This document shows, piece by piece, positions 4,299 through 19,919 of a DNA stretch of 64,000 nt. The position numbers and the translations under genes are program-made. Below the pieces are notes generated by a model. That model did not search any database, had not been told where the DNA came from, and saw nothing but the letters and a program-made list of their open reading frames with translations. Source of the DNA: Eledone cirrhosa (taxonomy: Eukaryota). Each line of letters starts with the position of its first letter. Positions within the stretch are counted from its first letter, which is position 1. The stretch is from assembly GCA_964016885.1 (NCBI GenBank), contig OZ024741.1, positions 200,818,001-200,882,000 on the forward strand, read 5' to 3'.

Positions 4299-4520
4299 TA
4301 TATAATACATTATAAAGAAAGAAGAAACATTAGACATAAATAAATAAATAAATATCTAATATTTCTCCACATTCTCGACTGTACAGTTTCACGGCTACTT
4401 TGCAAAAATCCTTTTGCAAAGTAGCCGCGAAACTGTACAGTCGAGAATGTGAAGAAATAATAGGTATTTATTTATTTATTTATGTCTAATGTTTCTTCTT
4501 TCTTTATAATGTATTATATA
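4299..4520. repeat. Palindrome with HHR 3' halves
   Basis: Arms about 4299-4407 and 4412-4520; + arm GAAA-ctgtacag-TC (4429-4442) with palindromic helix III; 5' core absent. Confidence 0.7.
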
Positions 4521-5137
4521 TATATATATATATGTTTTGTTGTGTCCCAGTGTGCATCGGGATGAACGGTAATGACCTTAATGTATCGAAACCGTAGTGA
4601 TTTCCAGAAAAGAACTGAGTTGGGACAGTCCGTTTTTCTGTTGTGTTTTTTTCCTTTTCTTTGTTCTGTGCACTCACTATTTTAATATTTTAAATTTATA
4701 TTATGAGACTTAGTCATGCGGGCTTTGAAATAATCATATAATAGACATCTCACCACACCACCTGGCCTGTTTTCCTCTATTCTCCCTTCATACCTTTTCT
4801 ATGTCTCAGTGTCCTACTTTGTCTGCACGTTGGACAACAGTCCTTACTCTCTTCTGTCTTACTATTACTCTTCTTTCTATAATTTTCTCCTTTGACTAAG
4901 CCCTTGCGCACTCTATACTTGTGTAATTTGCCTAAAGGTATAGTTATTTCTACCTGTTTTGTTGTGTCTTAATATGCACTGGAATGAACGGTATCGACCT
5001 TAATAAACAAGAAACTGTAGTTACATGTGTTACACCCGGATGTAACACATGCGCAAACTAAGCACACAACATACACAAAAACATGATGGCGTAGGACAGA
5101 ACAAAGGAGAGGCACAAAACAAAGAAAAGAATCCCCA

Positions 5138-5387: not shown

Positions 5388-5439
<52 letters not shown>

Positions 5440-5443
<4 letters not shown>

Positions 5444-5883
5444 TTCGTATTTCTAAAGAAACGTAGCTATGCAAACTCCGGGGCTGACGCCCTCTGGTGG
5501 TGTCCAGCAGAAGCAAGTGGGACAACCGTCTATGCATTTCAGGCTTGACTGGCCTTCTTCAGGACGGTCCCTCCCACCGCTTGCGACTGCTGGACTTGAA
5601 AACAGTCGGGAACATATAGTTTTCTCGTCTGTGTAAATGAGGTGATTAATCTCATTTGCATATGAAGCTGCATAAGTTGGCTCAACTTATAATAGAAAAG
5701 AAATAAGATTTTGCTGCTTCAAGCATAGCTTTATAACGGTTGTCCGACTTGCTTCTGCTGGACACCACCAGAGGGCGTTAGCCCCGGTTTTGCATAACTA
5801 CGGTTTCCTAAAAGCGTGTTTCTTTAGAAATACGAAATTTCTAAACATTTTTGTATAAAGCTATGCTTGAAGCGAAATCTTAT
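5440..5883. mobile_element. Retrozyme-like non-coding element (~310-nt unit), inverted two-arm insertion in (TA)n
   Basis: Minus arm 5735->5440 and plus arm 5736->5883 are circular permutations of one unit; contains an intact HHR; (TA)n on both sides. Confidence 0.75.
5525..5568 (-). ncRNA. Type I minimal hammerhead ribozyme, canonical core
   Basis: accgtc-CTGAAGA-aggc(cagtcaa)gcct-GAAA-tgca-TA-gacggt; palindromic helix III ATGCAT. Confidence 0.9.
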
Positions 5884-5885
5884 AT

Positions 5886-5943
<58 letters not shown>

Positions 5944-6185
5944 GTAGGAGGTGAGTTTTATTATAGTACAATAAGGCAATGCAGATATCGGATACGTAGC
6001 ACTCTACAGTTTGTAGGACTGGAGTATAAATAATATTAAAACTGCACTATTCACAAGTGTTTTTTAACCTTCATATCATGTCTCCCTATTTTATCTGACG
6101 AAAACGCAAATGTCATCTCATGATGATATTTGTTTTTGAAATGCGCATAATAAAATACATGGAACTCTTTTAACCATCTTTTGAT

Positions 6186-6229
<44 letters not shown>

Positions 6230-6258
6230 AAAGAATAGAGGTGTAACACACAAGTTAT

Positions 6259-6667
<409 letters not shown>

Positions 6668-8941: not shown

Positions 8942-8978
<37 letters not shown>

Positions 8979-9136
8979 GAGGAGGTTATAGTTCACTTGA
9001 AGCATTGTGTAATGAGGTATAAACGTTAGAATATGTGTAATAAGGCCAAGACAATGCAGATATGGACATAGAAAAAGAATGCAATAGTGAGAGATATTGG
9101 TGAGAATTAGTCTTTCACCTTGAATTTATTTAAATG

Positions 9137-9173
9137 TCCTTAATTTTCGAGATAATATCTCTTCTTCGGAGGG
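9137..9173 (-). ncRNA. PLE pLTR minimal hammerhead (inverted copy)
   Basis: Reverse complement of the motif at 13470-13506. Confidence 0.7.
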
Positions 9174-9549
9174 AAGTAAAAGTCTCAGACCAGCGTCTAA
9201 ATTTCCAATGAAGCCATGCTGACCGGAAATAGTATAGAGTTCTAACTTTAATATCAAAGAATTAAAATTAGGTGGGTAAAGAGTAGTCTCCCTTTAAGAG
9301 GGGTTTGTTTATGTTTTTGTTGTGTTATGTAAATTTTATATGCGTGCCTGTATATGTGTGTGGGAGAAAGCATGAAGGTGTAGGTATGTGTGTGTGTGTG
9401 AGTGTGGGAAGATAGGTCTAATCGTAAAAGTGGGGGGTAGGTGTTATCTGGTGTTAGAACTGGTTTTGTGTGTGTATGTGTGAGAGAGAATAAGTGGGGG
9501 TGTGTGCGTGCGTGTGTGTGGGGTGTGTAAAGTGGGGCTAGAGGCCCTA

Positions 9550-11476
9550 TCAGGTTATAAATTGGGTGTTGAGCTCTAGTCTATTATTGATTGGTGGATG
9601 TGTTCTATCTATAATGAGTGCTTCCTTGATTCTAAGATTACCGAGGTTTCTTTCTTTAGTTTCTATCCTAACTGTTATGTTTTTATCAGTGTTTTTGCAT
9701 TTAACTAGGTGTTTCTTAAATGAGGAAGCGTTAGTATTGAGGTGTTCTTTTATTCTTATGTGGAGTGGTCTGGTGGTGCTACCTACGTAGAAGTTGTTGC
9801 ATTTGTCACACTCTAGTCTGTAAACTACGTAAGCCTGGTGGCATAGGTCTGTGTCGTTGATGGGGCAGTTGGCTAGTCTGCAGCAGTTGTCATGTCTGGT
9901 GGAGTGTCTCTTAGCTAGCCGTCCACGCAAAGAAGGACCCGAATGGGCCAGTTGAATATCCAGACCTTCTCGTCTGATGGCTCTGCGGATGGCTGTTGTT
10001 GTTTCTTCACTGAAGTGTGGGAGCTTCAGGAAGCAAGTGTTAGTGCCTCGGGTGTGGTGTCCTCTGTTCTTTCTGGCACGGTTTGTGGTGGATGTCGTGT
10101 ATCCGTTCAGTTTGAGTACTTCCAGGAAATGTGTGGTGTGTGTGTCTCGGTCTCTGGCGTCGGTGCATTTGTTCTTGATACGTGCCAGTTCGTTCTTTAT
10201 GTATCCGAACTTGGCACCGAGTGGGAGGGCCGATCTGAAATGTACGAACAGGTCCCTGCTGGCGGATTTTTTATAGAAGCAGGTGTGGATGTTGCCTTCC
10301 TCTGTTACCCTGAGTTGGAAGTCCAGCAGGGATAGGGATCCGCGGTCATCGGGGTGTTCAATGCTGAACTTTATACTGGCGTCCATGCTGGAGAATGTTG
10401 TGTATATTTTCTCTGCCTCTTCACGGGATGATGTAAGGATGAGTATGTCATCTACATATCGGGTGAAGAAGGTATGGGAATGGCAGGTGTTGAGGGCTCG
10501 GCATTCTAGCTGGTTCATGTAAGTGATGGCCAGCAGGCCAGAGAGGCTGGATCCCATGGGTAATCCTGTTGTCTGTCTGTATGTGTGGTGGTGGAAGGTG
10601 AAGTACGTGTTGTCTACCGTGAAGGACAAAAGTTGGTGTATGTCCGTCGGGTGGAGGCCGTAGCAGTGGATGTTCTCTGCGACCACGCAGTCCGTCAATA
10701 AATCGACAGCTGGGTGAGCGGGGACTGTAGTGTAGAGGGAGACAACGTCGAGGCTAAAAGCGTATTTATTAAGTTTAAGTTGTTCTGGCTGGAGTTGGTG
10801 TAATCTACGTATAACTTCGTCGGAGCTACTGACATGTCCGGGGAAGGTGGAGAGTAGAGGCTTGAGGACCTGGGAGAGAAGCCAGGAAATTTTGTATAGG
10901 GGTCCTTCTATGCTAGAGACGATGGGTCTTATATGCGTCTTAGTGCTATTCTTGTGGGTCTTGATGAGGTGGTAGAAAGTGGGCAGTCTGCTATTTCTAG
11001 TGGTGTAGTTGAGTTTAATTTTATTCGGGAGTTGTCTTCTCCTACAGATATCGAACCAAATGGAGTTGGTCTGTTTTTCGATTTGGGCTGCGGTCATGTC
11101 CGGGATCACTGTGTACAGTTCACTGTCGCTTAGGTGTTCGAAGGCTAGGTTATTGTATGTGGCTTGAGAGATGACGCAGAACTCTTTACCTTTGTCGGAT
11201 GGTAAGTAAATAAGTTCCTTATTCCGTAGGTTCTTCAGGGCGAGTTGTTGTGTCCTGGAGAGGTTAGGGGCCATCTTCTTCTGTTTCCGTAAGATGTTAA
11301 ATACGGAATGTTTTAGTCTCGAGAGTTTATCTTCCAGCTCGCGGTTGGCGGGCGGTGGATAGAGTGGGCGATCTAGTTGGTATATCGGGAATCTGGGTGT
11401 GGTGGATTCCGTGGTGTTGTTGTCGAGAGTCGATATCCATTTCAGTTGGTAGGCAGCTCGACAGAAATTCGTTTCT
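9550..11476 (-). pseudogene. 5'-truncated PLE RT + GIY-YIG ORF (inverted copy)
   Basis: ORF track 9550-11274 (574 aa) matches the C-terminal part of the 860-aa protein except A->T in HSHAFF; homology continues to the junction at 11476. Confidence 0.9.
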
Positions 11477-13093
11477 CAAGCCACATACAATAACCTAGCC
11501 TTCGAACACCTAAGCGACAGTGAACTGTACACAGTGATCCCGGACATGACCGCAGCCCAAATCGAAAAACAGACCAACTCCATTTGGTTCGATATCTGTA
11601 GGAGAAGACAACTCCCGAATAAAATTAAACTCAACTACACCACTAGAAATAGCAGACTGCCCACTTTCTACCACCTCATCAAGACCCACAAGAATAGCAC
11701 TAAGACGCATATAAGACCCATCGTCTCTAGCATAGAAGGACCCCTATACAAAATTTCCTGGCTTCTCTCCCAGGTCCTCAAGCCTCTACTCTCCACCTTC
11801 CCCGGACATGTCAGTAGCTCCGACGAAGTTATACGTAGATTACACCAACTCCAGCCAGAACAACTTAAACTTAATAAATACGCTTTTAGCCTCGACGTTG
11901 TCTCCCTCTACACTACAGTCCCCGCTCACCCAGCTGTCGATTTATTGACGGACTGCGTGGTCGCAGAGAACATCCACTGCTACGGCCTCCACCCGACGGA
12001 CATACACCAACTTTTGTCCTTCACGGTAGACAACACGTACTTCACCTTCCACCACCACACATACAGACAGACAACAGGATTACCCATGGGATCCAGCCTC
12101 TCTGGCCTGCTGGCCATCACTTACATGAACCAGCTAGAATGCCGAGCCCTCAACACCTGCCATTCCCATGCCTTCTTCACCCGATATGTAGATGACATAC
12201 TCATCCTTACATCATCCCGTGAAGAGGCAGAGAAAATATACACAACATTCTCCAGCATGGACGCCAGTATAAAGTTCAGCATTGAACACCCCGATGACCG
12301 CGGATCCCTATCCCTGCTGGACTTCCAACTCAGGGTAACAGAGGAAGGCAACATCCACACCTGCTTCTATAAAAAATCCGCCAGCAGGGACCTGTTCGTA
12401 CATTTCAGATCGGCCCTCCCACTCGGTGCCAAGTTCGGATACATAAAGAACGAACTGGCACGTATCAAGAACAAATGCACCGACGCCAGAGACCGAGACA
12501 CACACACCACACATTTCCTGGAAGTACTCAAACTGAACGGATACACGACATCCACCACAAACCGTGCCAGAAAGAACAGAGGACACCACACCCGAGGCAC
12601 TAACACTTGCTTCCTGAAGCTCCCACACTTCAGTGAAGAAACAACAACAGCCATCCGCAGAGCCATCAGACGAGAAGGTCTGGATATTCAACTGGCCCAT
12701 TCGGGTCCTTCTTTGCGTGGACGGCTAGCTAAGAGACACTCCACCAGACATGACAACTGCTGCAGACTAGCCAACTGCCCCATCAACGACACAGACCTAT
12801 GCCACCAGGCTTACGTAGTTTACAGACTAGAGTGTGACAAATGCAACAACTTCTACGTAGGTAGCACCACCAGACCACTCCACATAAGAATAAAAGAACA
12901 CCTCAATACTAACGCTTCCTCATTTAAGAAACACCTAGTTAAATGCAAAAACACTGATAAAAACATAACAGTTAGGATAGAAACTAAAGAAAGAAACCTC
13001 GGTAATCTTAGAATCAAGGAAGCACTCATTATAGATAGAACACATCCACCAATCAATAATAGACTAGAGCTCAACACCCAATTTATAACCTGA
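11474..13093 (+). pseudogene. 5'-truncated PLE RT + GIY-YIG ORF
   Basis: Starts mid-ORF just after the DKG motif (equivalent to 14601); ORF track 11534-13093, 519 aa. Confidence 0.9.
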
Positions 13094-13469
13094 TAGGGCC
13101 TCTAGCCCCACTTTACACACCCCACACACACGCACGCACACACCCCCACTTATTCTCTCTCACACATACACACACAAAACCAGTTCTAACACCAGATAAC
13201 ACCTACCCCCCACTTTTACGATTAGACCTATCTTCCCACACTCACACACACACACATACCTACACCTTCATGCTTTCTCCCACACACATATACAGGCACG
13301 CATATAAAATTTACATAACACAACAAAAACATAAACAAACCCCTCTTAAAGGGAGACTACTCTTTACCCACCTAATTTTAATTCTTTGATATTAAAGTTA
13401 GAACTCTATACTATTTCCGGTCAGCATGGCTTCATTGGAAATTTAGACGCTGGTCTGAGACTTTTACTT

Positions 13470-13506
13470 CCCTCCGAAGAAGAGATATTATCTCGAAAAT
13501 TAAGGA
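13470..13506 (+). ncRNA. PLE pLTR minimal hammerhead (C4 core variant)
   Basis: cct-CCGAAGA-a-gagat(att)atctc-GAAA-at-TA-agg; helix III reduced to the palindrome AATT. Confidence 0.7.
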
Positions 13507-13637
13507 CATTTAAATAAATTCAAGGTGAAAGACTAATTCTCACCAATATCTCTCACTATTGCATTCTTTTTCTATGTCCATATCTGCATTGTCTTGGCCT
13601 TATTACACATATTCTAACGTTTATACCTCATTACACA

Positions 13638-16220
13638 ATGCTTCAAGTGAACTATAACCTCCTCCTTTCATTACGCCTGAGCCAGGCCCAGTTCACAACT
13701 GTAAAGAAACTCTTCCAGCTATCTGAAAAGCGCGCCAAAGCCGGCTGCCAAATAAATTTCCTAAAACGATGCCTGAACAACAACATCATTCCCAAAACCA
13801 TCAAAAATTTACACCTACCAACATGCTTCAATTCACCAGGCCTCAAACGATCTCTCAGTTACATACAAAAATTCTGCCTAAGAAAACTCATACAACACCT
13901 ACACCGCACGCTACAACATCACATACGGACTATCTCCAGCCTTGTACCACAACTCGCTGAAACCCCAGAACCTCTGTCCAAGGTCATCTCCGCCACTATA
14001 GACAGGTCATACCACCACCGCCGAGACTACGAGAAAAAACGCCTAACACAAAAATTTCTCAAACTCAGGACGGCCAACTGTCTTAACAACATCCCAACGC
14101 CAAACACCAACAGAGGCGAACAATACGTTACCAACACCGAACCTAGCGGCACCCCGACCAACAACACACCTGACGCAAAACACCTCGTCACAGACTTGAC
14201 AGGATCCCTCTCCCGAGAGGAATTAGACCTCCTCAGCCTGGGTCCCAAGTTCATATTGAAACAGAGACTGGACGACAGACTATGGCTCGACATAGAAACG
14301 AATTTCTGTCGAGCTGCCTACCAACTGAAATGGATATCGACTCTCGACAACAACACCACGGAATCCACCACACCCAGATTCCCGATATACCAACTAGATC
14401 GCCCACTCTATCCACCGCCCGCCAACCGCGAGCTGGAAGATAAACTCTCGAGACTAAAACATTCCGTATTTAACATCTTACGGAAACAGAAGAAGATGGC
14501 CCCTAACCTCTCCAGGACACAACAACTCGCCCTGAAGAACCTACGGAATAAGGAACTTATTTACTTACCATCCGACAAAGGTAAAGAGTTCTGCGTCATC
14601 TCTCAAGCCACATACAATAACCTAGCCTTCGAACACCTAAGCGACAGTGAACTGTACACAGTGATCCCGGACATGACCGCAGCCCAAATCGAAAAACAGA
14701 CCAACTCCATTTGGTTCGATATCTGTAGGAGAAGACAACTCCCGAATAAAATTAAACTCAACTACACCACTAGAAATAGCAGACTGCCCACTTTCTACCA
14801 CCTCATCAAGACCCACAAGAATAGCACTAAGACGCATATAAGACCCATCGTCTCTAGCATAGAAGGACCCCTATACAAAATTTCCTGGCTTCTCTCCCAG
14901 GTCCTCAAGCCTCTACTCTCCACCTTCCCCGGACATGTCAGTAGCTCCGACGAAGTTATACGTAGATTACACCAACTCCAGCCAGAACAACTTAAACTTA
15001 ATAAATACGCTTTTAGCCTCGACGTTGTCTCCCTCTACACTACAGTCCCCGCTCACCCAGCTGTCGATTTATTGACGGACTGCGTGGTCGCAGAGAACAT
15101 CCACTGCTACGGCCTCCACCCGACGGACATACACCAACTTTTGTCCTTCACGGTAGACAACACGTACTTCACCTTCCACCACCACACATACAGACAGACA
15201 ACAGGATTACCCATGGGATCCAGCCTCTCTGGCCTGCTGGCCATCACTTACATGAACCAGCTAGAATGCCGAGCCCTCAACACCTGCCATTCCCATGCCT
15301 TCTTCACCCGATATGTAGATGACATACTCATCCTTACATCATCCCGTGAAGAGGCAGAGAAAATATACACAACATTCTCCAGCATGGACGCCAGTATAAA
15401 GTTCAGCATTGAACACCCCGATGACCGCGGATCCCTATCCCTGCTGGACTTCCAACTCAGGGTAACAGAGGAAGGCAACATCCACACCTGCTTCTATAAA
15501 AAATCCGCCAGCAGGGACCTGTTCGTACATTTCAGATCGGCCCTCCCACTCGGTGCCAAGTTCGGATACATAAAGAACGAACTGGCACGTATCAAGAACA
15601 AATGCACCGACGCCAGAGACCGAGACACACACACCACACATTTCCTGGAAGTACTCAAACTGAACGGATACACGACATCCACCACAAACCGTGCCAGAAA
15701 GAACAGAGGACACCACACCCGAGGCACTAACACTTGCTTCCTGAAGCTCCCACACTTCAGTGAAGAAACAACAACAGCCATCCGCAGAGCCATCAGACGA
15801 GAAGGTCTGGATATTCAACTGGCCCATTCGGGTCCTTCTTTGCGTGGACGGCTAGCTAAGAGACACTCCACCAGACATGACAACTGCTGCAGACTAGCCA
15901 ACTGCCCCATCAACGACACAGACCTATGCCACCAGGCTTACGTAGTTTACAGACTAGAGTGTGACAAATGCAACAACTTCTACGTAGGTAGCACCACCAG
16001 ACCACTCCACATAAGAATAAAAGTACACCTCAATACTAACGCTTCCTCATTTAAGAAACACCTAGTTAAATGCAAAAACACTGATAAAAACATAACAGTT
16101 AGGATAGAAACTAAAGAAAGAAACCTCGGTAATCTTAGAATCAAGGAAGCACTCATTATAGATAGAACACATCCACCAATCAATAATAGACTAGAGCTCA
16201 ACACCCAATTTATAACCTGA
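13638..16220 (+). CDS. PLE polyprotein, 860 aa: reverse transcriptase + GIY-YIG endonuclease (E->V variant in EN)
   Basis: FLKRC..NIIP N-terminal motif, PSDKG, RPIVS, SLDVVSLYT, GLPMGS, RYVDD, then Cys-rich linker and VVY..CxxC..YVGST..R..H...H...EAL..IN GIY-YIG with CCHH residues. Confidence 0.95.
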   Translation: MLQVNYNLLLSLRLSQAQFTTVKKLFQLSEKRAKAGCQINFLKRCLNNNIIPKTIKNLHLPTCFNSPGLKRSLSYIQKFCLRKLIQHLHRTLQHHIRTISSLVPQLAETPEPLSKVISATIDRSYHHRRDYEKKRLTQKFLKLRTANCLNNIPTPNTNRGEQYVTNTEPSGTPTNNTPDAKHLVTDLTGSLSREELDLLSLGPKFILKQRLDDRLWLDIETNFCRAAYQLKWISTLDNNTTESTTPRFPIYQLDRPLYPPPANRELEDKLSRLKHSVFNILRKQKKMAPNLSRTQQLALKNLRNKELIYLPSDKGKEFCVISQATYNNLAFEHLSDSELYTVIPDMTAAQIEKQTNSIWFDICRRRQLPNKIKLNYTTRNSRLPTFYHLIKTHKNSTKTHIRPIVSSIEGPLYKISWLLSQVLKPLLSTFPGHVSSSDEVIRRLHQLQPEQLKLNKYAFSLDVVSLYTTVPAHPAVDLLTDCVVAENIHCYGLHPTDIHQLLSFTVDNTYFTFHHHTYRQTTGLPMGSSLSGLLAITYMNQLECRALNTCHSHAFFTRYVDDILILTSSREEAEKIYTTFSSMDASIKFSIEHPDDRGSLSLLDFQLRVTEEGNIHTCFYKKSASRDLFVHFRSALPLGAKFGYIKNELARIKNKCTDARDRDTHTTHFLEVLKLNGYTTSTTNRARKNRGHHTRGTNTCFLKLPHFSEETTTAIRRAIRREGLDIQLAHSGPSLRGRLAKRHSTRHDNCCRLANCPINDTDLCHQAYVVYRLECDKCNNFYVGSTTRPLHIRIKVHLNTNASSFKKHLVKCKNTDKNITVRIETKERNLGNLRIKEALIIDRTHPPINNRLELNTQFIT

Positions 16221-16596
16221 TAGGGCCTCTAGCCCCACTTTACACACCCCACACACACGCACGCACACACCCCCACTTATTCTCTCTCACACATACACAC
16301 ACAAAACCAGTTCTAACACCAGATAACACCTACCCCCCACTTTTACGATTAGACCTATCTTCCCACACTCACACACACACACATACCTACACCTTCATGC
16401 TTTCTCCCACACACATATACAGGCACGCATATAAAATTTACATAACACAACAAAAACATAAACAAACCCCTCTTAAAGGGAGACTACTCTTTACCCACCT
16501 AATTTTAATTCTTTGATATTAAAGTTAGAACTCTATACTATTTCCGGTCAGCATGGCTTCATTGGAAATTTAGACGCTGGTCTGAGACTTTTACTT

Positions 16597-16633
16597 CCCT
16601 CCGAAGAAGAGATATTATCTCGAAAATTAAGGA
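16597..16633 (+). ncRNA. PLE pLTR minimal hammerhead
   Basis: Identical to 13470-13506, offset 3127. Confidence 0.7.
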
Positions 16634-16764
16634 CATTTAAATAAATTCAAGGTGAAAGACTAATTCTCACCAATATCTCTCACTATTGCATTCTTTTTCT
16701 ATGTCCATATCTGCATTGTCTTGGCCTTATTACACATATTCTAACGTTTATACCTCATTACACA

Positions 16765-19347
16765 ATGCTTCAAGTGAACTATAACCTCCTCCTTTCATTA
16801 CGCCTGAGCCAGGCCCAGTTCACAACTGTAAAGAAACTCTTCCAGCTATCTGAAAAGCGCGCCAAAGCCGGCTGCCAAATAAATTTCCTAAAACGATGCC
16901 TGAACAACAACATCATTCCCAAAACCATCAAAAATTTACACCTACCAACATGCTTCAATTCACCAGGCCTCAAACGATCTCTCAGTTACATACAAAAATT
17001 CTGCCTAAGAAAACTCATACAACACCTACACCGCACGCTACAACATCACATACGGACTATCTCCAGCCTTGTACCACAACTCGCTGAAACCCCAGAACCT
17101 CTGTCCAAGGTCATCTCCGCCACTATAGACAGGTCATACCACCACCGCCGAGACTACGAGAAAAAACGCCTAACACAAAAATTTCTCAAACTCAGGACGG
17201 CCAACTGTCTTAACAGCATCCCAACGCCAAACACCAACAGAGGCGAACAATACGTTACCAACACCGAACCTAGCGGCACCCCGACCAACAACACACCTGA
17301 CGCAAAACACCTCGTCACAGACTTGACAGGATCCCTCTCCCGAGAGGAATTAGACCTCCTCAGCCTGGGTCCCAAGTTCATATTGAAACAGAGACTGGAC
17401 GACAGACTATGGCTCGACATAGAAACGAATTTCTGTCGAGCTGCCTACCAACTGAAATGGATATCGACTCTCGACAACAACACCACGGAATCCACCACAC
17501 CCAGATTCCCGATATACCAACTAGATCGCCCACTCTATCCACCGCCCGCCAACCGCGAGCTGGAAGATAAACTCTCGAGACTAAAACATTCCGTATTTAA
17601 CATCCTACGGAAACAGAAGAAGATGGCCCCTAACCTCTCCAGGACACAACAACTCGCCCTGAAGAACCTACGGAATAAGGAACTTATTTACTTACCATCC
17701 GACAAAGGTAAAGAGTTCTGCGTCATCTCTCAAGCCACATACAATAACCTAGCCTTCGAACACCTAAGCGACAGTGAACTGTACACAGTGATCCCGGACA
17801 TGACCGCAGCCCAAATCGAAAAACAGACCAACTCCATTTGGTTCGATATCTGTAGGAGAAGACAACTCCCGAATAAAATTAAACTCAACTACACCACTAG
17901 AAATAGCAGACTGCCCACTTTCTACCACCTCATCAAGACCCACAAGAATAGCACTAAGACGCATATAAGACCCATCGTCTCTAGCATAGAAGGACCCCTA
18001 TACAAAATTTCCTGGCTTCTCTCCCAGGTCCTCAAGCCTCTACTCTCCACCTTCCCCGGACATGTCAGTAGCTCCGACGAAGTTATACGTAGATTACACC
18101 AACTCCAGCCAGAACAACTTAAACTTAATAAATACGCTTTTAGCCTCGACGTTGTCTCCCTCTACACTACAGTCCCCGCTCACCCAGCTGTCGATTTATT
18201 GACGGACTGCGTGGTCGCAGAGAACATCCACTGCTACGGCCTCCACCCGACGGACATACACCAACTTTTGTCCTTCACGGTAGACAACACGTACTTCACC
18301 TTCCACCACCACACATACAGACAGACAACAGGATTACCCATGGGATCCAGCCTCTCTGGCCTGCTGGCCATCACTTACATGAACCAGCTAGAATGCCGAG
18401 CCCTCAACACCTGCCATTCCCATGCCTTCTTCACCCGATATGTAGATGACATACTCATCCTTACATCATCCCGTGAAGAGGCAGAGAAAATATACACAAC
18501 ATTCTCCAGCATGGACGCCAGTATAAAGTTCAGCATTGAACACCCCGATGACCGCGGATCCCTATCCCTGCTGGACTTCCAACTCAGGGTAACAGAGGAA
18601 GGCAACATCCACACCTGCTTCTATAAAAAATCCGCCAGCAGGGACCTGTTCGTACATTTCAGATCGGCCCTCCCACTCGGTGCCAAGTTCGGATACATAA
18701 AGAACGAACTGGCACGTATCAAGAACAAATGCACCGACGCCAGAGACCGAGACACACACACCACACATTTCCTGGAAGTACTCAAACTGAACGGATACAC
18801 GACATCCACCACAAACCGTGCCAGAAAGAACAGAGGACACCACACCCGAGGCACTAACACTTGCTTCCTGAAGCTCCCACACTTCAGTGAAGAAACAACA
18901 ACAGCCATCCGCAGAGCCATCAGACGAGAAGGTCTGGATATTCAACTGGCCCATTCGGGTCCTTCTTTGCGTGGACGGCTAGCTAAGAGACACTCCACCA
19001 GACATGACAACTGCTGCAGACTAGCCAACTGCCCCATCAACGACACAGACCTATGCCACCAGGCTTACGTAGTTTACAGACTAGAGTGTGACAAATGCAA
19101 CAACTTCTACGTAGGTAGCACCACCAGACCACTCCACATAAGAATAAAAGAACACCTCAATACTAACGCTTCCTCATTTAAGAAACACCTAGTTAAATGC
19201 AAAAACACTGATAAAAACATAACAGTTAGGATAGAAACTAAAGAAAGAAACCTCGGTAATCTTAGAATCAAGGAAGCACTCATTATAGATAGAACACATC
19301 CACCAATCAATAATAGACTAGAGCTCAACACCCAATTTATAACCTGA
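16765..19347 (+). CDS. PLE polyprotein, 860 aa, intact RT + GIY-YIG
   Basis: Same motifs as 13638-16220; retains RIKEH; potentially active. Confidence 0.95.
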   Translation: MLQVNYNLLLSLRLSQAQFTTVKKLFQLSEKRAKAGCQINFLKRCLNNNIIPKTIKNLHLPTCFNSPGLKRSLSYIQKFCLRKLIQHLHRTLQHHIRTISSLVPQLAETPEPLSKVISATIDRSYHHRRDYEKKRLTQKFLKLRTANCLNSIPTPNTNRGEQYVTNTEPSGTPTNNTPDAKHLVTDLTGSLSREELDLLSLGPKFILKQRLDDRLWLDIETNFCRAAYQLKWISTLDNNTTESTTPRFPIYQLDRPLYPPPANRELEDKLSRLKHSVFNILRKQKKMAPNLSRTQQLALKNLRNKELIYLPSDKGKEFCVISQATYNNLAFEHLSDSELYTVIPDMTAAQIEKQTNSIWFDICRRRQLPNKIKLNYTTRNSRLPTFYHLIKTHKNSTKTHIRPIVSSIEGPLYKISWLLSQVLKPLLSTFPGHVSSSDEVIRRLHQLQPEQLKLNKYAFSLDVVSLYTTVPAHPAVDLLTDCVVAENIHCYGLHPTDIHQLLSFTVDNTYFTFHHHTYRQTTGLPMGSSLSGLLAITYMNQLECRALNTCHSHAFFTRYVDDILILTSSREEAEKIYTTFSSMDASIKFSIEHPDDRGSLSLLDFQLRVTEEGNIHTCFYKKSASRDLFVHFRSALPLGAKFGYIKNELARIKNKCTDARDRDTHTTHFLEVLKLNGYTTSTTNRARKNRGHHTRGTNTCFLKLPHFSEETTTAIRRAIRREGLDIQLAHSGPSLRGRLAKRHSTRHDNCCRLANCPINDTDLCHQAYVVYRLECDKCNNFYVGSTTRPLHIRIKEHLNTNASSFKKHLVKCKNTDKNITVRIETKERNLGNLRIKEALIIDRTHPPINNRLELNTQFIT

Positions 19348-19723
19348 TAGGGCCTCTAGCCCCACTTTACACACCCCACACACACGCACGCACACACCCC
19401 CACTTATTCTCTCTCACACATACACACACAAAACCAGTTCTAACACCAGATAACACCTACCCCCCACTTTTACGATTAGACCTATCTTCCCACACTCACA
19501 CACACACACATACCTACACCTTCATGCTTTCTCCCACACACATATACAGGCACGCATATAAAATTTACATAACACAACAAAAACATAAACAAACCCCTCT
19601 TAAAGGGAGACTACTCTTTACCCACCTAATTTTAATTCTTTGATATTAAAGTTAGAACTCTATACTATTTCCGGTCAGCATGGCTTCATTGGAAATTTAG
19701 ACGCTGGTCTGAGACTTTTACTT

Positions 19724-19760
19724 CCCTCCGAAGAAGAGATATTATCTCGAAAATTAAGGA
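19724..19760 (+). ncRNA. PLE pLTR minimal hammerhead
   Basis: Identical to 13470-13506, offset 6254. Confidence 0.7.
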
Positions 19761-19919
19761 CATTTAAATAAATTCAAGGTGAAAGACTAATTCTCACCAA
19801 TATCTCTCACTATTGCATTCTTTTTCTATGTCCATATCTGCATTGTCTTGGCCTTATTACACATATTCTAACGTTTATATATATATATATATATATCAAC
19901 ATACACACGCATATACATA

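Follow-up and report, generated by a model that had tools for sequence, protein, structure and literature searches.

We found that a retrozyme copy with two head-to-head arms, lying between (TA)n tracts of the Eledone cirrhosa genome, was very probably inserted by a Penelope-like element (PLE) protein of the RT/GIY-YIG type, with both strands of the (TA)n target nicked and cDNA synthesis starting at two fixed internal positions of the RNA, ~40 nt apart. What is directly seen is two clusters of 3' ends, one per arm, on microsatellite sequence, with variable 5' ends that are joined together; the two arms come from the same sequence variant, and the ribozyme is read through in most copies. Under the mechanism that we propose, a PLE protein, perhaps acting as a dimer, would nick both strands of a (TA)n tract, the target would prime one cDNA at RNA site A and another at RNA site B, and the two unfinished cDNAs would be joined in the middle, the template being effectively longer than one monomer. 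The plus arm of the focal copy may have run off a self-cleaved 5' end, with chances that we put at about even, and from those copies whose length accommodates two ribozymes (~6% of arms), monomers or circles would be formed anew. A more detailed version, in which a dimeric Penelope protein alternates strictly between the two RNA sites and uses mostly ligated 322-nt circles, with ~2% of arms made on self-cleaved linear RNA and so beginning 1 nt inside the cut, is tentative and rather unlikely; if true, it would amount to genomic evidence of in vivo hammerhead cleavage and of PLE mobilisation of circular RNA, and the head-to-head structures of PLEs would be explained without antisense self-priming.

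The focal locus and its retrozyme family

The window, by which we mean the whole stretch of 64,000 nt that was analysed, holds the focal locus and, 3 kb from it, an autonomous PLE (Table 1). The two arms abut 5' to 5', running from 5735 to 5440 on the minus strand and from 5736 to 5883 on the plus strand, and we confirm this head-to-head layout, which the initial annotation had described together with a minus-strand hammerhead; the latter is intact. The minus arm reads tataaagctatg...gaaattt before it enters the (TA)n tract, lacks a 16-nt segment at monomer positions 69-84, and stops ~13 nt before one full lap. The plus arm has +2 as its first nucleotide, 1 nt inside the predicted cut and with G+1 absent, in agreement with the earlier claim of a start within 1 nt of the cut. 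It consists of ~90 nt matching the end of the minus arm at 80% and including the 16-nt segment that the minus arm lacks, then 14 nt, then ~36 nt matching the start of the minus arm, an order which bears out that it crosses the end-to-start junction of the monomer, as had been stated. The tail at its 3' end includes ATGCTTGAAG at monomer position 130, a word similar to that at the ATG of the window PLE, which lies at +136. No ORF of at least 200 aa is present at the focal locus, the frame from the ATG-like motif of the retrozyme closes after 13 codons, and target-site duplications are unreadable within (TA)n sequence. In the maps of the arms, no LTR, PBS or PPT was evident.

Table 1. Features of the focal locus and the autonomous PLE, in window coordinates; monomer positions are numbered from the predicted cut.
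Feature	Position	Strand	Remarks
(TA)n target tract	5391-5440		Adjoins the minus-arm 3' end
Minus arm, 296 nt	5440-5735	-	Monomer positions 121 to 322, then 1 to ~108; 3' end at site A
Type I hammerhead, intact core	5520-5570	-	Stem II AGGC/GCCU; predicted cut 5531|5530
Plus arm	5736-5883	+	Monomer +2 to ~150; 3' end at site B
PLE-type 'tail', ~40 nt between sites A and B	5842-5883	+	At the plus-arm 3' end only
(TA)n target tract	5888-5941		4 nt past the plus-arm 3' end
Young intact autonomous PLE	8978-19879		RT (PF00078) and C-terminal GIY-YIG (PF01541); intact protein encoded at 16765-19347

By its sequence features, the focal element is a member of a 322-nt non-LTR retrozyme family, i.e. a non-autonomous PLE, with predicted RNA cleavage, and the focal copy, which carries a single ribozyme, is a dispersed derivative of this family. 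The monomer, first put at ~310-325 nt, measures 315-339 nt in nine anchor-to-anchor genomic copies, the majority having 322 nt. Across the 3.0 Gb genome we counted 402 exact matches to a 27-mer, whose reversed sequence, used as a control, gave 0, as well as 1451 exact matches to the cut-proximal motif and, at first look, 2927 family candidates, and the family comprises at least three subfamilies. Tandem head-to-tail DNA arrays of 2.2-4.8 units also occur, as at L215, where three consecutive ribozyme motifs are spaced by ~320 nt. The RT/GIY-YIG ORF is absent from the retrozyme element, which is non-autonomous, and is carried by the separate PLE of Table 1. The natural monomer of L029 folds at -96.7 kcal/mol (z=-5.1; 0/100 shuffles as low), and a z of -8 for the circular fold was set aside for its crude shuffle. 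The seven copies L043-L049 (G000:C1 143.3-143.8 Mb) are nearly identical, sit at intervals of ~60 kb and are carried by a large tandem segmental duplication; they were removed ahead of the counts.

The hammerhead has a stem I formed by 5570-5563 (5' strand) and 5530-5520 (3' strand), the core stretches CUGAAGA (5562-5556) and GAAA-UGCA-UA (5540-5531), a stem II of 4 bp, and a helix III in which a single pair is capped by the palindromic tetraloop UGCA. It was not called by Rfam under gathering and E-value thresholds, where the output consisted of TA-repeat noise. Upon comparing 141 ribozyme instances, we observe that the stems are 81-93% paired and the core is conserved, with AUA or AUC as the cleavage triplet. 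The first three pairs of stem II switch from A-U/G-C/G-C to G-C/A-U/A-U in 18, 15 and 27 copies, respectively, and stem I shows two further compensatory switches with the core unchanged. Since partners in both stems are exchanged together between subfamilies and the core is kept, the fold was under selection in the source elements, and ribozyme activity is predicted. In subfamily C (10/141; L128, L132, L153 and others), the helix III palindrome UGCA is replaced by UGCGCA and the first pair of stem I is swapped to G-C/C-G.

Two 3'-end sites, one per arm

We mapped the arms of 283 loci (250 after de-duplication), leaving out the long arrays L100 and L215; these loci are a non-random set, composed of best matches and of patterns near the cut site, and none was picked on its 3' ends. 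Among the 372 arms that are uncut by the locus edge, 139 have their 3' end at monomer positions 100-135 (site A) and 170 at positions 140-172 (site B), so that the two sites, ~40 nt apart, together account for 309/372 ends, with 63/372 elsewhere. Adjacent inverted arms are head-to-head in 107 cases and tail-to-tail in 1. When both ends of a pair fall at A or B, the pair has one of each in 57/66 cases (p=6e-10; 41/48 in a smaller count of pairs), the focal locus being one such A+B pair; exceptions are the 9/66 pairs with A+A or B+B and 37 more pairs with one or both ends elsewhere. A microsatellite lies within 24 nt of 190/278 3' ends, versus 57/278 5' ends, and the exact positions of the retrozyme sites are blurred by TA-like sequence. 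This two-site pattern of 3' ends is the PLE 'tail' signature; it is a stronger signal than the one at the 5' ends and was absent from the initial annotation.

The same geometry is observed in the window PLE, in which a single minus arm is joined to a plus arm made up of ~2.7 tandem units of 3127 bp, with arm ends +163 and +123 nt past a hammerhead-like motif of variant core CCGAAGA, both on (TA)n. Its family has 900-aa open frames, and 91 genomic matches were scored, with protein identities of 98-100%. Across 30 loci of this PLE family, 25/25 terminal ends that could be read fall, with nucleotide precision, at +123 or +163-165, and 9/9 readable pairs have one of each end; ~10 further ends were unreadable by the ungapped matcher because of a T-run indel. 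That A and B ends, one per arm, recur in the window PLE points to priming from both nicked strands. The window PLE exemplifies the enzyme type by which the retrozyme was likely mobilised, and is itself a candidate partner. The tails of the two elements match weakly (p=0.021; p=0.05 for a wider region; no BLAST match), a clearly homologous pLTR was not found in comparison with the window's PLE, and PLE coding sequence beside retrozyme arms (L001-L285) was limited to two weak matches, at L238 and L049, both at least 800 nt from the locus centre.

Head-to-head arms are also the product of L1 twin priming, in which two target-primed cDNAs meet head-to-head. If this took place on one linear RNA, the arms would be adjacent, non-overlapping pieces of the transcript. 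Such an origin would account for the orientation, for both 3' ends lying on target DNA and for the variants shared between arms, and the 5' ends of B arms lie at most 20 nt from site A in 10/41 pairs, with 5 expected; but the 5' end of the A arm is near site B in just 2/41 pairs, synthesis starts at fixed sites instead of scattered ones, and poly(A) is absent. Moreover, the arms of a pair can share as many as ~295 monomer positions, with summed lengths of up to 823 nt. This rules out twin priming of the simple L1 type if the template is a monomer, and weighs against it in general unless templates routinely hold three or more units; we consider this explanation improbable. The retrozyme differs from L1 twin priming in its fixed internal starts, its overlapping arms, its circular or tandem permutation and its lack of poly(A).

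Even less probable, in our judgement, is that the inverted arms arose from an antisense template that folded back or primed itself, as PMC3846280 proposes for rotifer PLEs, by rearrangement at the DNA level, or by mis-assembly. Several junctions are short palindromes (e.g. L242, L258, L317/318), a perfect palindrome lies nearby at 6259-6571, and in three contig sets, from one sample of unknown kind, no piece spans the focal junction. Against these origins, the focal arms differ in their 5' ends (121 versus 2), in their 3' ends and at 6/103 shared sites, the lengths of paired arms are uncorrelated (rho -0.06), one A end with one B end is not predicted by fold-back, and the layout is common to 107 independent loci. 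Priming by a PLE protein at sites A and B is the reading that we retain.

The template and the predicted cut site

The arms of a pair differ by 8.6%, and this rises to 12.3% when partners are shuffled. Over 21 diagnostic sites, opposite arms differ by 8.0%, versus 38% between loci. Successive laps within an arm differ by 11%, or by 7.7% without L155 and L158, which had been taken for laps or arms of different subfamilies but in which nested or adjacent insertions had been mis-aligned into a single arm. This low divergence indicates that both arms derive from one molecule or one source variant. In a sample unselected for its ends (80 loci picked by the exact 27-mer only, 101 arms), the cut site is crossed by 87 arms, twice by 6 of them, 40 arms exceed 322 nt, and the 5' ends are spread round the monomer. 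The template was thus permuted, i.e. circular or multimeric.

The initial annotation had gone further, holding that the arms only make sense as copies of a circle. The permuted template stands, but head-to-tail DNA arrays exist and a linear multimer fits as well. That the template must be a covalently closed circle of ~320 nt, with 5' ends marking the self-cleavage site as a rule, we hold to be doubtful. The crossing of the cut by 87/101 arms is compatible with it, as are the agreement between laps, which is about that between opposite arms, a broad 2-3x rise of the stop rate between 240 and 360 nt, and the focal minus arm ending just short of a full lap; in addition, PMC4209133 leads one to expect that a monomeric circle would leave a ribozyme silent if its helix III has one pair, and other animal retrozymes accumulate as circles, as described in the part available of PMC7229834. 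However, we found no hard stop at exactly one lap, since the fit is equally good with the jump placed at 240 nt or at 322 nt, tandem DNA arrays of several units are present, ends at +2 make up just ~1.3-2% of the arms that reach the cut, and a linear RNA starting at one cut and carrying a second, uncleaved ribozyme would give the same locus. Arms longer than 520 nt number 1/134. That so few ends lie at the cut although the ribozyme was selected, and that the arms are short next to the kilobase arms of PLEs, leans slightly towards circles, while the tandem DNA copies keep the linear route in play; overall, we place a ligated circle a little ahead of an uncleaved linear multimer.

We also examined the 5' ends around the predicted cut, where truncations are found throughout the interval +14 to -39, with hardly a position spared. 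The sample near the cut comprised the first 100 matches listed from each of 160, 238 and 139, which gave 64 true ends between +14 and -7, with the focal locus, read-throughs, +15 ends and 3 same-strand deletions left out. Among the matches listed, 8 of the 64 ends are at +2 and 3 at +1, and these were compared with a microhomology-aware simulation using real flanks, 4% noise and the same filter (2.7 expected at +2, p=0.006; 4.5 expected at +1/+2, ~2.4x, p=0.005). Significance depends on the positions pooled, with p=0.059 for +2, +1 and -1 among the matches listed, where +7 also has 8 ends versus 4.4 expected. An overlapping sample contains 6 ends at +1/+2 versus 1.1-1.4 per position. In the complete genome-wide lists, 61 entries inspected by eye include 12 ends at +2 (2 ambiguous) and 0-3 at each of +1 and -1 to -6, and under another genome-wide filter +2 ends make up 10/17 entries. 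Upon correction for an estimated filter pass rate of ~0.43-0.52, the +2 ends amount to ~19-28 of 1451 (1.3-2%), meaning that ~98% of arms go past the cut. As these samples lie above expectation at +1/+2, a small excess of 5' ends at the cut, 1 nt inside, probably exists.

It comes close to an even call, falling slightly short of it, that the +2 start reflects random truncation or a microhomology join, independent of cleavage. The spread of ends over nearly every neighbouring position would follow from this, several joins share 2-5 nt of GT/ACCGT, the peak is at +2 rather than +1, and about a third of the +2 ends (2.7/8, among the matches listed) is expected by chance, leaving about two thirds as excess. 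The excess over a simulation that already allows for microhomology, the near-empty neighbouring positions genome-wide, and the joins at L141, L227 and L279 to unique flanks without evident homology all speak against this reading. With other causes allowed for, the focal plus arm is about equally balanced between a cleavage footprint and a chance end, and for the family such a footprint is real, at best, in a small minority of copies. The predicted truncation peak is thus present as a small excess (11 versus 4.5 of 64, among the matches listed) but concerns few arms; as a general footprint of cleavage it largely fails, with 5' ends spread across copies, and the circle and cleavage interpretation given earlier was overstated. 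In the PLE family, 4 matches at 3 loci have 5' ends near the ribozyme-like motif, at ~+10, +7 and -17, with 0/3 at the cut, numbers too small to bear on the peak. Separately, L179, L222, L194, L109 and L209 show same-strand jumps or deletions with one breakpoint a few nt from the cut, their position calls being script-dependent; these are possibly template jumps from a cleaved 5' end.

Known systems and neighbouring sequence

The element type is already known, and the family fits the proposal of non-autonomous PLEs. With the metazoan non-LTR retrozymes, as presented in the part available of Cervera & de la Pena 2020 (PMC7229834), it shares a non-coding unit in the range of 150-450 bp, a type I hammerhead, tandem copies, low GC, a strongly self-paired RNA and coexistence with PLEs, and the axolotl HHR_Amex1 reported there has, like the focal ribozyme, a one-pair helix III with a palindromic tetraloop. 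Unlike those described in that part, most copies sampled here are dispersed partial arms or arms of 1-1.5 units that lie in (TA)n and frequently form inverted pairs carrying a tail, and circular RNA and cleavage were demonstrated there, whereas the present family is known from genome sequence alone. The words 'inverted', 'tail', 'microsatellite' and 'truncat' do not occur in the main text of PMC7229834. In the portion available of the preprint by Li, Clavereau & Pollet (bioRxiv 10.64898/2026.07.22.740005), the same conclusion is reached, namely that retrozymes are PLE-derived and PLE-mobilised with dispersed monomeric offspring; the evidence given in that portion is co-occurrence and pLTR phylogeny, and ours is insertion structure, with two start sites, one per arm.

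EN+ PLEs, in the available parts of PMC8557442, PMC3846280 and PMC11167929, share with the retrozyme 5' truncation, partial tandems, an adjacent inverted 5'-truncated copy, a 30-40-bp tail at one end, microsatellite targets and a hammerhead upstream of two internal RT start sites. The retrozyme differs from them in having no ORF, a unit of 322 nt and arms rarely longer than 500 nt, in contrast to PLE arms that reach kilobases. The tail is present at one end only according to what is available of PMC8557442 and PMC3846280, and the part available of PMC11167929 reports that the PLE protein nicks and extends both strands in vitro, and that two internal starts define the tail; in vitro, no difference in start site between strands and no requirement for ribozyme cleavage were observed, which weighs against our reading. 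Neither the A+B rule in a retrozyme nor the cut-site excess was found in the literature covered, namely the main texts of openly accessible papers. In their available parts, these papers state as open what moves animal retrozymes and how the inverted structures of PLEs form; the retrozyme family offers a countable answer from the genome, namely the two-site signature of PLEs, each arm using one of the sites. This signature matches that of an active PLE of the same genome and is a clean, testable insertion mark, and a short RNA with a young intact PLE protein would make an in vitro test easy.

Several further structures lie close to the focal locus. The palindrome mentioned above, placed at 6226-6565 between (TA)n tracts, is a perfect one of 156 bp in which one arm has ~39 extra nt; each arm carries a degenerate hammerhead-like motif, with ends 115 or 154 nt past it, and this looks like a third family with the same two-site geometry. 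A type I hammerhead-like motif, CTGACGA...GAAA TGCGCA TA, is found at 6095-6149 (+), and the distance between it and a (TA)n tract is 38 nt; a sequence resembling it occurs beside L002, and the region is a nest of such insertions. Upstream, 4517-4582 and 4939-5004 form a 66-nt direct repeat with 77% identity, 422 nt apart.
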